Of a stretch of 15,360 nucleotides of DNA, positions 10,765 through 15,360 are shown in pieces. The translations under genes were made by a program, and so were the position numbers. How positions within the stretch are numbered: the stretch's first letter is position 1; every line of letters starts with the position of its first letter. Below the pieces are notes generated by a model. The model did no database searches and had not been told where the DNA came from. It saw only the letters and a list, made by a program, of their open reading frames with translations. Source of the DNA: Bacteriovoracaceae bacterium (lineage in GTDB: Bacteria; Bdellovibrionota; Bacteriovoracia; Bacteriovoracales; Bacteriovoracaceae); NCBI GenBank assembly GCA_049599895.1, contig JBMYPC010000073.1, forward strand, positions 1-15,360. Reading direction: 5' to 3'.

Positions 10765-11104
10765 TAATGTTCTCTATCTCGGGCTTATCTTTTATTTATG
10801 CCTAAACAAACCAGGGGGCCAAACGCCCTCAATCCCCCATTTTGATAAAGTTCTCCACTTTGGCATTTATTTTGTGTTGAACTTTTTTCTTTTTCTCATC
10901 ACTCGAAAAACAAAAATCGTTTTTCTTTTTAATCTTTTTATTGGATCACTCATTGAATCCATCCAATACATTCTTCCCTACAGGTCCTTTGAAGTTCTTG
11001 ATCTTCTTGCGAATACTTCAGGAAACATTATATCCCTATTGCTTATTTTAAAAATTCCTCTTCTGCAAAAGACCCTTCAAAAGTTAAACCCAGAGGTCCG
11101 GTAA
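10739..11104 (+). CDS. VanZ family membrane protein
   Basis: FDKVLHFGIY and IESIQYILPYRSFEVLDLLANTSG are typical VanZ-like motifs. About 4 hydrophobic segments. Confidence 0.88.
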   Translation: MNRVFSIFINVLYLGLIFYLCLNKPGGQTPSIPHFDKVLHFGIYFVLNFFLFLITRKTKIVFLFNLFIGSLIESIQYILPYRSFEVLDLLANTSGNIISLLLILKIPLLQKTLQKLNPEVR

Positions 11105-11843
11105 GTAAGAGTCCATCTTCAAGTTTAGCTCCCAGTCGCTTAGCCGAAAATTCTCCTCCACGAGTTTCAATCTTTACTGACTCAAGGTCTGGATTGTTTT
11201 TAAAATAAGACATAGCGACTGCACTCACACCTGTTCCTGAAGAATAGGTTTCATCTTCTACCCCTCGTTCAAAAACTCTCATTTCAATAAGACCCTTTGA
11301 TTTCCCTCTATAGAAATCAACATTTGAGCCATTCTTAAACCTTTGATCATGGCGAATTTTTGAAGCCAAATCCACAAAGTTCTGAACCTCTAGATCTCCT
11401 ACCTCAAAAACACTATGAGGAACTCCTGTATTGATATAAAGAGAACTTTTATTTTTATAAAGATTAGTGATGTCGATTTCTCCAACTTCAGTAATGTCAT
11501 TCATTTTAATCCAACAGGACTCATCAGAAACTTGCACGTCGTAACTATGTTTTTGGGTGAGAACTTTCGCTTCAGTATTAGGAGATATGAAATTCGATCG
11601 ATAAAAATAATCCGTGACGGCCCTGAGGCCATTGCCACACATTTCAGCTTCACCGCCGTCGCTATTGTAATAAATCATAGTAAGAGGATCGGTTTTGTAG
11701 AAGATGATTCCATCAGCACCAATGCCAAAGCGGCGATGACAAAGCCTTGCAAGATCAAGCTTCTCTCTTATGGCATTACCATCCTTTTCGCTAAGCAAAA
11801 TAAAATCATTGCCAGCAGCGGAATATTTCACGAACTTAATCAC
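11043..11843 (-). CDS. dapF: Diaminopimelate epimerase family protein (second catalytic Cys replaced by Ser)
   Basis: Motifs KYSAAGNDF, RRFGIGADG, NSDGGEAEMCGNG, NTGVPH, ERGVEDETYSSGTG and LTGP. GTG start with GAGGTG RBS. Confidence 0.9.
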   Translation of the reverse strand: MIKFVKYSAAGNDFILLSEKDGNAIREKLDLARLCHRRFGIGADGIIFYKTDPLTMIYYNSDGGEAEMCGNGLRAVTDYFYRSNFISPNTEAKVLTQKHSYDVQVSDESCWIKMNDITEVGEIDITNLYKNKSSLYINTGVPHSVFEVGDLEVQNFVDLASKIRHDQRFKNGSNVDFYRGKSKGLIEMRVFERGVEDETYSSGTGVSAVAMSYFKNNPDLESVKIETRGGEFSAKRLGAKLEDGLLLTGPLGLTFEGSFAEEEFLK

Positions 11844-11939: not shown

Positions 11940-12016
11940 GGGACATTAGCTCAGTTGGTTAGAGCTCCCGGCTCATAACCGGGCGGTCGCAAGTTCAAGT
12001 CTTGCATGTCCCACCA
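11940..12016 (+). tRNA. tRNA with anticodon CAT; most likely tRNA-Ile2 (lysidine), otherwise elongator tRNA-Met
   Basis: 77-nt cloverleaf: acceptor GGGACAT/ATGTCCC, D arm GCTC/GAGC, anticodon arm CCCGG-CTCATAA-CCGGG, T arm GCAAG-TTCAAGT-CTTGC, encoded ACCA. The G1-C72 pair argues against the initiator tRNA. Confidence 0.95.
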
Positions 12017-13569
12017 TTAAATTGCTTATCACAACCATTTGTTGTGATTTTTGGAAAGACTCCTAAAAAGGGAGCCTTTTTTATGTGTAGCTTCACCGAA
12101 TAATTATCAACCATTTCAATTTTCTCGAATATCTGGCTAATCAGCGCTCTTTTTGTTGACCTATCTAAACTCTTAAACCTATTAGAATATGTAGCGATCT
12201 TTTGCTGCACTATGGAAATATCAGGCTTTTTAAGCATAAGCTCTTTTAGATTCTCTTTTTCTTCGATTTTTTTAACCAGCCCTATTTTCTTGTTTTCAAC
12301 ATCGTTTAATTTTTTGCTCAATGTCTCAATCGCTGGCCCACTCAAGTCATCTCTTGTCATATATTCAACAATCCTATCGCATTGTTTTTCTAGCTCTGTA
12401 ACTTTATTTTTTAGTTTACTAATTTCACTACTGATTCTTCTCAAACCATCTCGCTGTTTTGCAACGCTCTTTTGAACTAGCTTTTCTAAATGTCCTGAGT
12501 TCTTAAAGTAGCTAATTACACGTTCTTCGATCTGACTTTCTAGAAGTGAAGCATTTATCCTTTGTTTCGATTTTTTTGAATAGTAATAACGATAATCTTT
12601 TGATCTCCCATGACCAACATGGCCCTGCAATGGTGATCCATCCTTAGAAATGAGTACTCCAGAAAGTAAATATATGTGATTTCTTTTCCCGCACCGTGCC
12701 TGAAACTTTTTTAATTTCTCACGCTTAGAGACAACTTCATATACCAATGATTCGTCTAGGATAGGCTCATAGTCTAAATTACTTGTTATTTCTTGCTTGG
12801 TCTTCTTATCAACATAATGATAACGAGAGATATACCTCCATTCGACATTCTTTAAGATATTATTAAACCTAAAAGAACTGAACGGCTTTCCTTTATCAGT
12901 AATTCCCTCAGCATTCGCTCGTCTAATTGCCTCTGCCTTGCTTGAACTCTCTAAGAATAAATGCAGCAATCGTAAGAGATCTTTAATCTCACTCTCATTT
13001 CTGATGAAATGCCCCTTTCTGTCTGGACAGCGGTCTAAGCCTAGCAAGTCTCCAGCGCCATTTATTTTCCCATCTTTCTCCAAGCGATCTAAAATGTTTC
13101 TTTTAATTCTTAATCCTGTAACCTTACTTTCGTAAGTTGCAAGAGACGCCATCATTGTTTCTAGCATTTCACCAGAAGGGTCATCAGTGTCTAAATTTGA
13201 TCCAATAAATTTTAATTTAACATTATTTTTATCACAGTGTTGCTTAAACAATAGGTAGAAGAAAGTATCACGCATAACTCTTGAAAGCTCTGAACATACG
13301 ACTCTATCAACTTCACCTTGATCTATTAGCGTCCAAAGTCTTTGAAATCCGGGCCGTTCCATATCTCTTGCTGACATCCCAGCATCTTCAATTACTTCAA
13401 TAACCTTGTAAGGAATGCCTTTTGATTCATATTCTCTTTTTATCTCATCCTCAGCACGTCTCTTTTGCACGGGAAGTGAACCATCTTCGATACGGATACC
13501 ATTATAGAATGCTTGTCCTTTTGTGCTAACTCGAATGTAGATTAGAATTCTAATCGTTTCAGTGCTCAT
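11995..13569 (-). CDS. Large serine recombinase (integrase)
   Basis: 524 aa. Catalytic YIRVST (Ser15), DAGMSA..ERPGFQRL, ELSRVMRD, a recombinase domain, a YLLSG..YRYY ribbon-like region and a long coiled coil. GGAGAG upstream. Confidence 0.95.
   Translation of the reverse strand: MSTETIRILIYIRVSTKGQAFYNGIRIEDGSLPVQKRRAEDEIKREYESKGIPYKVIEVIEDAGMSARDMERPGFQRLWTLIDQGEVDRVVCSELSRVMRDTFFYLLFKQHCDKNNVKLKFIGSNLDTDDPSGEMLETMMASLATYESKVTGLRIKRNILDRLEKDGKINGAGDLLGLDRCPDRKGHFIRNESEIKDLLRLLHLFLESSSKAEAIRRANAEGITDKGKPFSSFRFNNILKNVEWRYISRYHYVDKKTKQEITSNLDYEPILDESLVYEVVSKREKLKKFQARCGKRNHIYLLSGVLISKDGSPLQGHVGHGRSKDYRYYYSKKSKQRINASLLESQIEERVISYFKNSGHLEKLVQKSVAKQRDGLRRISSEISKLKNKVTELEKQCDRIVEYMTRDDLSGPAIETLSKKLNDVENKKIGLVKKIEEKENLKELMLKKPDISIVQQKIATYSNRFKSLDRSTKRALISQIFEKIEMVDNYSVKLHIKKAPFLGVFPKITTNGCDKQFNGGTCKT
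12028..12082 (+). terminator. Two terminator-like hairpins downstream of the tRNA, inside the integrase CDS
   Basis: ATCACAAC-CATTT-GTTGTGAT followed by TTTT (12028-12052), and AAAGACTCCT-AAAAA-GGGAGCC followed by TTTTTT (12055-12082). Confidence 0.55.
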
Positions 13570-13786
13570 TTAAGGCTCTCCAGAAAAATAAAACGATGTC
13601 CTCTTGAAGCTCTATCCCTTCATCTTTTTCTAGCAAATATATTTTTTTGTTAATTTTCTTGCGTTTTGATTTCTTTAATTTTAGCACACACTGTTTACAA
13701 CGAGAATCTCGTCCATTTTTTCCATTGGACTTTAAGTAAAAGGACTTAAATGTTTTACTCTTCTTACAAAGACTGCAAACCTTCAT
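13559..13786 (-). CDS. Small basic zinc-finger protein (CxxC-22-CxxC)
   Basis: MKVCSLCKKSK..F..G..SRCKQC. Overlaps the integrase start by 11 bp. Confidence 0.75.
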   Translation of the reverse strand: MKVCSLCKKSKTFKSFYLKSNGKNGRDSRCKQCVLKLKKSKRKKINKKIYLLEKDEGIELQEDIVLFFWRALNEH

Positions 13787-13832: not shown

Positions 13833-14714
13833 TTAGTCTACTTTCATTTTACCAAATGCTATTTTTAAATAAACTTTATCTCCAGACTTTTTAAGAAATT
13901 TAAAATCCTTTCTTAATTTAGCGTTTTCCTTCAAAATTTTGCCTTTTACCTTGTTGTGAACCTCCATAAGAGTTTGTCCTTGTTTTTCCTTATTTATTCC
14001 TATCTTATCAATTTCAGAGAGTGACATCTGATTACGCTTTAAAACAGAAAATAAGTTTTTTTTCTTGTTCTTTTTTCCATATTCCACAATGAGTTCAAGG
14101 TAGAGCGCCTCTCTTTCGGAAATTTTAAGACTTTTTGCCTCTTTCCAATTCTTTTCCATTATCCTGTAGATCAGTTCTTTCTTTTTACTTCCATTTAAGC
14201 TTTTAATCTCTCTAATTGAGATTACAGGAGTAGTTTCCTCAATAAGAAAGGAAAAACCTTCAAATTCCTCCTTAATTAGCTTAGCCTTGCTAAGAGAGTC
14301 TCTGTTAAAAACCTCTAAGAGAAAATACTCTTTACCTTCAAAATGAACCTCCGTTTTCATTAAATCAAGTAAAGCAATTTTTTGATTAAGACTTAAAAGA
14401 TCTCCTTCAATAAGACGAGTTAGTTCCTTAATCCCACCCTTCGTACTATAAAGACTAAGACAAAATAAAAACAATTTTTTTATTTGAGAGTTTTTAGGTC
14501 TTCTTTTATATTTTTTAAAAATTCTCTCATATCTAGTTAGCAGCAATGTCCAAAATAACTTGCGCCTTCCATTTTTTGAAAACTCCTTGCGAGTTATTTT
14601 TGTTTTCGCTATAGCCTTAATGTCATCAACTTCAAATAAAGAGCAAATGCATTTTTCAAAGGATTCTCTCTTTGAATTGAAATAATAATTACCAAAGAAT
14701 TCATAAGCTTTCAT
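13833..14714 (-). CDS. Lys-rich hypothetical protein, possible C-terminal winged helix
   Basis: 293-aa ORF with GAGGAG RBS. LKISEREALYLELIVEY loosely resembles the start of OmpR-type DNA-binding domains. Confidence 0.7.
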   Translation of the reverse strand: MKAYEFFGNYYFNSKRESFEKCICSLFEVDDIKAIAKTKITRKEFSKNGRRKLFWTLLLTRYERIFKKYKRRPKNSQIKKLFLFCLSLYSTKGGIKELTRLIEGDLLSLNQKIALLDLMKTEVHFEGKEYFLLEVFNRDSLSKAKLIKEEFEGFSFLIEETTPVISIREIKSLNGSKKKELIYRIMEKNWKEAKSLKISEREALYLELIVEYGKKNKKKNLFSVLKRNQMSLSEIDKIGINKEKQGQTLMEVHNKVKGKILKENAKLRKDFKFLKKSGDKVYLKIAFGKMKVD

Positions 14715-14820
14715 AACGTCTCCTCACTTTGGAAGTGCCCCCCATCATTTCTTGTGGAGACTTCCAAAAAAATAATTATATTTAAACACTAATATTAATT
14801 CATCAACTAAGGAGATTTTG

Positions 14821-15135
14821 ATGAAAGAATTTACTTATTTTTACAACGTGACCCTACCTGAAACGAGCTACATTGAAAACCGCTCAAACGAAGTTTTTAT
14901 AGACATTATGAATAGGGCGTCTTCTCGTTTAGAAAACTACCTTATCCGAAAAGGAATTGAGTACGACAAAGTTCTAATCTCAAGCTATCTGCTGATAATT
15001 CCGAAGGAGATCGATTCTGAAGCGAAATGCTTTATCGACAATATTCAGGACCTTTTTGATTTATTCAAAGCCTTCGTCGAAGAAGAAGCTTCATCAATCC
15101 AAGTTCCAATTAATATTCAAGCCGCAAATGCATAG
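14821..15135 (+). CDS. Hypothetical protein (104 aa)
   Basis: AAGGAG at 14809-14814, then ATG 14821. Divergent from the integrase-side genes. Confidence 0.75.
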   Translation: MKEFTYFYNVTLPETSYIENRSNEVFIDIMNRASSRLENYLIRKGIEYDKVLISSYLLIIPKEIDSEAKCFIDNIQDLFDLFKAFVEEEASSIQVPINIQAANA

Positions 15136-15282: not shown

Positions 15283-15360
15283 ATGACAAAAAAGAAAAAA
15301 TATTTTAATCAGAGATCAAAGTATAAGTATATGCCAGACAAGGTGTTTATATCAGTTTAC
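15283..15360 (+). CDS. Possible gene start truncated by the window end
   Basis: ATG 15283 opens 26 codons (MTKKKKYFNQRSKYKYMPDKVFISVY) with no stop before the edge. Confidence 0.45.
   Translation, partial: MTKKKKYFNQRSKYKYMPDKVFISVY

Follow-up and report, generated by a model that had tools for sequence, protein, structure and literature searches.

For serine integrases the key issue is how direction is controlled, and the known directionality factors are separate proteins that are hard to find. In the canonical large serine integrases the integrity of the gene does not depend on the state of the element, and a separate factor sets direction. A different arrangement has been described for the myxophage Mx8, where attP lies inside int and integration rewrites the 3′ end of the gene, altering the activity of the product without abolishing it; the accessible text of PMC6070905 calls this a 'molecular switch', and in the available part of PMC4383910 the enzyme is a tyrosine recombinase. 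Likewise, the 'suicidal' integrases of SSV1, pTN3 and pT26-2 have the att site in the gene, with int(N) and int(C) left at opposite ends of the integrated element; in the available sections of PMC8371274 (2021) the intact SSV-type gene is viewed as its own directionality factor, and self-disrupting integrases, of the tyrosine family, are called exclusively archaeal.

Among serine recombinases, DsiB of the Dehalococcoides ssrA islands is a ∼540-aa reverse-strand protein that always overlaps attL and has no stop codon of its own (McMurdie et al. 2011, PMC3146451, available text). Its authors speculated that it may reach full function only when on the circle or when preceded by an adjacent island, and their islands, which occur in tandem, carry a small second serine recombinase in the module (same text). 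The description of Islander from 2015 states, in its available part, that serine recombinases are not known to target tRNA genes (PMC4383910), and the word 'tRNA' has zero occurrences in the main text of Durrant 2022 (PMC10083194). The layout reported below is not described in the accessible portions of PMC12884075, PMC11551731, PMC12424338 and PMC10083194, and our literature search, made over listings and abstract beginnings and leaving most subscription journals uncovered, returned no serine integrase that regains a whole domain on excision.

The integrase gene and its target tRNA

The window, by which we mean the whole stretch of DNA analysed (15,360 nt), is an entire contig, C73, of a Bacteriovoracaceae genome; its features are listed in Table 1. 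The integrase encoded there on the reverse strand, intN in its integrated form, has a Resolvase domain (PF00239) at residues 9–159 (E = 4.3e-26), and the N-terminal serine catalytic domain has its RxS nucleophile motif, R13, S15, R72, R97 and R100 all being conserved. The recombinase domain (PF07508) was matched at E = 0.0083, which is under the curated cut-off, and at E ≤ 0.01 in 15 of 20 aligned members. Its closest named homologues are from Bacteriovoracaceae. With a catalytic domain, a possible recombinase domain, short att sites and partly inverted arms, it resembles the canonical large serine integrases SPbeta, TP901-1, Bxb1 and phiC31, and profile matches to the TP901-1 and SPbeta structures were obtained. 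Unlike them, the intN clade has no zinc-ribbon cysteines and inserts at tRNA ends: intN has no four-cysteine zinc ribbon (no CxxC is present in that region), and PF13408 was found in one of 20 members. Zinc-ribbon cysteines do occur in a more distant fused protein (L053).

Table 1. Features of the window and of its likely far end; positions without a contig name are those of the window
Feature	Position	Strand	Basis
dapF, host flank, marks left edge of element	11043–11843	−	PF01678, E = 3.2e-37; synteny in relatives
Target tRNA, anticodon CAT; host arm of attL	11940–12016	+	ARAGORN
T-loop TCA, antisense of the TGA stop of the integrated integrase	11995–11997	+	sequence
intN, large serine recombinase, integrated short form, 524 aa, catalytic Ser15	11995–13569	−	
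att core, last 6 nt of the tRNA; crossover placed near 12011/12012	12011–12016	+	
Element arm of att site; opposite strand codes integrase residues	12012–12047	+	
8-bp hairpin and T run inside integrase CDS, possible replacement tRNA terminator	12028–12052	+	fold −8.1 kcal/mol, z −1.9, weak
Intrinsic-terminator-like site inside integrase CDS	12060–12084	+	1 versus 0.2 expected in shuffles; folding z −0.9, weak
75-aa four-cysteine protein, end overlaps integrase start, candidate directionality factor	13559–13786	−	
293-aa element gene, no Pfam/PHROG match	13833–14714	−	
105-aa element gene, no Pfam/PHROG match	14818–15135	+	
ORF start cut by contig end	15283–15360	+	may continue as 344-aa open ORF at C105 end
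Likely matching core	G000:C105:1907–1912		
intC following that core, 126 aa	C105:1908–2288	+	

The original prediction had the integrase ORF enter the tRNA by 22 nt, take its final six codons (GGTCKT) from the CCA end, acceptor stem and T stem read in reverse complement, and end at a TGA that is the antisense of the T-loop TCA; ARAGORN and inspection of the sequence confirmed each of these points. Residues 521–524 and the stop are tRNA antisense, and 520 residues are common to the predicted circle form. The tail peptide is filler and not special, since every frame that reads antisense into this tRNA in the same register would acquire it; an unrelated 190-codon antisense frame in a relative (L029) has the same tRNA-derived ending. 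The cause of the overlap is the att site within the gene, and what goes beyond chance is a recombinase without any stop codon of its own. Among 29 other loci of the phylum, the homologue extends into the gene of a tRNA or tmRNA in 19, does not in nine and is doubtful in one; the genes entered are those for Asn, Asp, His, Arg, Pro, Val, Ala and Met-type tRNAs and for tmRNA. The target tRNA of the window, called Met by ARAGORN, is the sole CAT tRNA assembled in its own genome, and from G1–C72 (paired), C29–G41 and C5–G68 it is probably Ile2.

Like DsiB in the available text (PMC3146451), the window recombinase lies on the reverse strand, overlaps attL and lacks its own stop. The targets differ: DsiB uses the T-loop of tmRNA with a 20-bp repeat (same text), whereas the intN family uses the acceptor end with a core of 6–17 bp, also in those relatives that target tmRNA.

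The same CAT tRNA was followed in 29 relative loci, in 24 of which dapF stands beside it. The empty alleles that the original prediction called for are common: 28 of these loci carry the tRNA without such an integrase and one has a recombinase behind it, the DNA downstream of the tRNA being shorter than 750 bases in four of the 29. The tRNA locus is an insertion site, and the window holds the left end of an integrated element. In several relative loci a terminator-like hairpin follows directly after the CCA; in the window the element arm appears to supply the tRNA with terminator-like hairpins, as judged from weak folding scores (Table 1).

A CxxC..CxxC ORF lies immediately upstream of the integrase in 22 of 33 loci, the window counted; no family name was found for the four-cysteine protein. 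A perfect 15-bp inverted repeat (15190–15204/15245–15259) just 5′ of the ORF at 15283 is a possible operator or origin site of the element.

The att core and the two forms of the gene

Far ends were sought in up to 100 kb of DNA behind the integrase loci. In 19 pairs from relatives the far-end repeats are 6–17 bp long, start 6–13 nt from the tRNA end and exclude the T loop. Short cores with partly inverted arms of ∼25 bp were seen in the relatives; the rebuilt attP arms are partly inverted repeats (G260), which in the clearest pairs are centred 5–6 nt from the tRNA end, and this arm symmetry was used to place the crossover in the window. The shared cores of the 19 pairs support the claim that the att core lies inside the integrase CDS and, together with the centre of symmetry, place the crossover on the 3′ side of the T loop. 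The long direct repeat of the tRNA 3′ end that had been anticipated was not found in the window's own genome, the window core being only ∼6 bp. Its best match there, 13 bp at C153:653, sits inside a host ORF and was rejected. Far ends chosen by repeat length alone for G062 (second site), G111 and G320 were wrong or unsupported, and profile-guided sites were substituted. No circle or empty-site junction was present in the contigs of four sequencing runs, contigs being a format that drops rare forms.

On the rebuilt circle the integrase frame stays open and enters intC, a conserved domain with its start at the far-end core. intN and intC are in frame in 19 of 19 cognate pairs (18 loci), a count over related, non-independent elements that is not a probability; three reading frames occur, and within any one element the two parts agree in theirs. 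Nine of the 19 pairs built the first intC profile, and the other ten were found with the profile, their cores being located without use of the frame. In the 15 pairs measured, the tail is 2–32 aa when integrated and 149–170 aa on the circle. The original prediction had asked whether translation across a rebuilt attP would return the same C-terminus: it did not in any of these pairs, each of which gains an in-frame intC on the circle, and the difference, a whole domain of ∼125–170 aa, is larger than the few residues that had been expected. No intC was found in the DNA examined for nine other tRNA-overlapping loci, eight of which reach a contig or locus edge within 1–36 kb; in G168 the DNA examined extends over ∼37 kb.

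Fused ORFs of 738–784 codons also occur naturally, in G303, G241, G237 (two) and G386, and two further fused proteins were found in the database. Those of G303 and G241 stand at tandem junctions behind a tRNA-adjacent island; for G237 and G386 the surrounding DNA that was examined holds no tRNA. The sole non-cognate tandem junction examined, in G241, is out of frame. The reconstructions show that in the relatives the gene spans attP and that its two states encode different predicted proteins, and we regard the split-gene layout (intN/intC) of the family as close to certain.

Two groups of loci show further arrangements. In G126 (L131–L132), G194 (L128–L129) and G168 (L126–L127) the integrated ORFs read antisense through a whole tRNA-Ser or tmRNA gene, giving frames of 698–857 codons whose long tails are filler and not intC. 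In G241:C2 (L120–L121, L143) a triple tandem at tRNA-Pro combines two integrase types with different frames at a single target; the junction between the two types is out of frame, and the one between matching types forms a 753-codon fused ORF.

intC is a predicted DNA-binding domain. Matches to helix-turn-helix families lie in its first half, and the second half aligns with residues 170–246 of the SPbeta integrase, in the recombinase-domain region (E = 1.9e-9). The fold from a single sequence was poor (pLDDT 44), and a model based on an 18-sequence alignment was used instead; in this AlphaFold model intC forms two small helical domains (pLDDT 85, pTM 0.49). Foldseek gave no match to the PDB at E ≤ 0.001, the phage collection held no match, and among plasmids there were partial recombinase-domain matches only, in six. 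Of 200 genomes of the family, 96 contain intC.

Could the overlap instead be an accident, the recombinase having decayed or been domesticated and its stop codon lost? An unrelated antisense frame can have the same ending, as L029 shows, and the contig of the window holds no far end. However, 19 of 29 homologues overlap an RNA gene, the gene is missing at this site in 28 of 29 relatives, and complete elements with attR and intC exist, one of them at the same CAT tRNA. This element (L066, 8.5 kb) also encodes a primase, a repressor-like protein and a small resolvase, and its attR is followed by a terminator-like hairpin. Like the element of G260, it lies in full on a single contig. An accident is already contradicted for the family, and we think it scarcely tenable for the window. 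Nor do we expect the main control to act at the RNA level, by pairing or collision of the convergent tRNA transcript with the end of the integrase mRNA; the original prediction had suggested that tRNA transcription could damp expression of the integrase. The two genes are indeed convergent and overlapping, and a tRNA precursor would span ∼60–90 nt of the integrase 3′ end, but terminator-like hairpins within 70 nt of the CCA end would shorten this overlap, and the conserved in-frame domain at the far end is left unexplained; such control is very improbable.

The split gene works like Mx8 and SSV1 and is a member of neither group. As in Mx8, it is bacterial, attP lies inside int, and integration swaps the C-terminus; the Mx8 enzyme, in the available texts, is the tyrosine recombinase of a phage, with unrelated chemistry and an unrelated tail, whereas the window integrase belongs to the serine family. 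As in the SSV type, the att site is in the gene and intN and intC stand at opposite ends (in all 19 relative pairs and, likely, in the window and contig C105). In the archaeal systems, by the accessible account (PMC8371274), Int(C) is catalytic and both halves are inactive; here intN keeps all catalytic residues, only an accessory DNA-binding domain is detached, and the enzymes are of the serine family and Bacteriovoracaceae-related. For DsiB the available text names no missing domain; for the present family the missing part is identified, as a ∼150-aa helix-turn-helix plus recombinase-like domain.

The likely far end of the element

The far end of the window's element is not on its own contig. 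A profile search of the same genome found intC on several contigs, of which four were set aside: the two copies on C62 belong to an array at tRNA-His, the core on C112 is tmRNA- or Ala-type, and the copies on C183 and C214 are broken. Contig C105, by comparison, carries the last six bases of the window tRNA followed by intC in the frame of the window. Its arm is symmetric to the window arm at 15 of 26 positions, the tied best among 1,807 core sites (mean 7.0, s.d. 2.3), for a scoring span that was picked after the C105 match had been viewed and with a chance site, C84, tying the score; known pairs score 7–20. In the reciprocal test the window tRNA was the best of 29 RNA ends for C105 (15 versus 12), and of the controls C62:2937 picked its own tRNA while two more gave no clear choice. 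Two tRNA-Val genes of this genome are followed by the repeat that also comes after the C105 core, which is what a displaced tRNA end should show. Contig depth is the same in the window/C105 comparison (9.1–9.4 versus 9.13), in a run that may be the source of this DNA.

The cut ORFs with which C73 and C105 end could be two parts of a single homologue, P0041, which is the only other homologue of the open 344-aa ORF of C105; the match of the C73 piece to the P0041 N-terminus is weak (4 of 8 identities, E = 2.9). A join of C73 and C105 would leave an intact tRNA at the empty site, and no contig joins the two. We consider it probable that C105 is the far end of this element, which would then measure ∼12 kb and encode a circle form of 644 aa. 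Against the join stand, besides the lack of a spanning contig, the C105 intC, which is 25–30 aa shorter than most and may be decaying, the repeat on the host side and a sibling module on C125.

The host side of the C105 core sits in a multi-copy repeat. This palindromic repeat of up to ∼200 bp (L139:1575–1906) is also found at C118:1820–1876 and C1:54988–55075, on C15 and C53, and elsewhere; repeats of this type start right after the CCA of at least two tRNA-Val genes and break assemblies. Contig C125 has a repressor-like gene and a small resolvase resembling those of C105 (79–88% DNA identity in two stretches) and is probably part of a sibling element. The likely far-half cargo (L139:3767–5641) consists, in a row, of a 316-aa protein without known function, a STAS-like DUF4325 protein and a PIN-like protein, and by its predicted products resembles a defence or toxin–antitoxin module. 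Of the six-gene module that accompanies DsiB in the available text (with DsiA, RecF, ParB, Mom and a large protein), only a small resolvase has a counterpart here, on C105; no match to ParB, Mom or RecF was found in the three other element ORFs of the window and the 11 ORFs of C105, an incompletely assembled element.

Proposed role of the split gene and cassettes without intN

Given these data, we lean, with moderate confidence, towards a model in which the integrase gene spans its own att site and the gain of an extra predicted DNA-binding domain on excision acts as a built-in state switch; that the split gene has a role in directionality we hold to be similarly plausible. The chromosomal copy would end in the four tRNA-derived residues and the excised circle would encode the longer enzyme, which would arise only from circles or tandem junctions. 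The long form would be the efficient integrating enzyme, because intC would bring in a helix-turn-helix together with another domain of recombinase type that serves att DNA. Excision by the short form, in which the catalytic and main DNA-binding regions are retained, would be rare or would depend on a cofactor; the four-cysteine protein encoded upstream is the candidate. Once integrated, an element would have less integrase activity of its own and would need no repressor to achieve this.

Alternatively, the fusion may be real and the job of intC unrelated to direction, such as autorepression or binding to an origin or promoter, with both forms recombining alike. On its own, intN still has the catalytic domain and the region of the recombinase domain, intC is similar in its first half to generic helix-turn-helix regulators, and a separate candidate cofactor gene is located upstream of the integrase in 22 of 33 loci. 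Against this, the att-binding recombinase domain is copied in the second half of intC, pointing to att DNA as its target, and tethering to the integrase would be needless for a separate regulator; we think this reading rather unlikely.

The main result against a pure fusion model comes from elements that have no intN at all. At tRNA and tmRNA ends there are arrays of 2–9-kb cassettes, each with an att arm and a mostly intact intC, in G007 (five copies), G409, G013, G120, G175, G496 and, on C62, the window's own genome. The array junctions seen are tRNA-end cores flanked by intC; integrons are marked by an IntI tyrosine integrase and attC hairpin sites. In three of five genomes checked (G007, G013, G120) a full-length integrase homologue was not found. 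Pairwise dN/dS of intC is 0.05–0.10 among seven tmRNA-type copies, 0.17–0.37 among the five of G007 and 0.2 for the two of G409, values that indicate purifying selection. A pure fusion model explains these cassettes only via co-excision or tandem fusion, by which their intC could be kept up together with a neighbouring intN.

These cassettes raise the possibility that intC is a small protein of its own, made from the integrated element and acting in trans, for instance as an excision factor, with the fusion being secondary. The intact, selected intC of the cassettes and the three genomes without a detected integrase homologue fit this, as do the stand-alone 'recombinase domain' clusters of similar appearance in the Atlas, commonest in Bdellovibrionota and Spirochaetota, and the ATG, GTG or TTG present within the first 40 codons of 11 of 18 intC. 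However, the position of the start is not conserved: seven of the 18 have no start codon in that stretch, nor does the likely intC of the window on C105, and one of 18 has a Shine–Dalgarno-like motif. Moreover, intN and intC agree in frame in all 19 pairs, with three frames in use, and selection on the cassettes could be inherited or stem from co-excision with a neighbouring intN. We judge action in trans to be unlikely and retain the state switch as our working model.

A broader version of this model, which we offer tentatively and regard as doubtful, is that a widespread bacterial family of serine integrases splits its gene as a directionality switch with intC as built-in factor, and that small intN-less cassettes, stacked at the same tRNA ends and each with its intC intact, complete and use the integrase of a neighbour through co-excision or tandem fusion, in integron-like capture. 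If true, predatory bacteria would possess an integron-like gene-capture system based on a serine recombinase.

What is new here is a serine integrase split at its att site with the detached domain identified, the precedents being Mx8, SSV1 and the remark on DsiB. DNA rearrangement itself would add or remove an integrase domain. The intN/intC family contradicts two statements in the available texts, that serine recombinases do not target tRNA genes (PMC4383910) and that self-disruption is exclusively archaeal (PMC8371274), and the 2011 speculation on DsiB, as worded in the accessible part of PMC3146451, becomes testable with defined short and long proteins. Databases hold mostly short forms with tRNA-antisense tails, so that tool miners working at tRNA ends would clone an incomplete enzyme. 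With intC in nearly half of the family's genomes, these elements would be a major route of gene traffic there.

The cassette arrays lie at L184–L186 (G007:C1:147,000–169,000), L194, L199, L200, L189, L193 and L140, and those of G007 have paralogous cargo genes in common. The window's own genome holds three further sites: an intact integrase running into tRNA-Asp (G000:C33:20676–22267), a decayed integrase at tRNA-His with two intC copies (G000:C62:3–10648, L140), and an intC copy whose core is of tmRNA or Ala type (G000:C112:1458–1916, L141).
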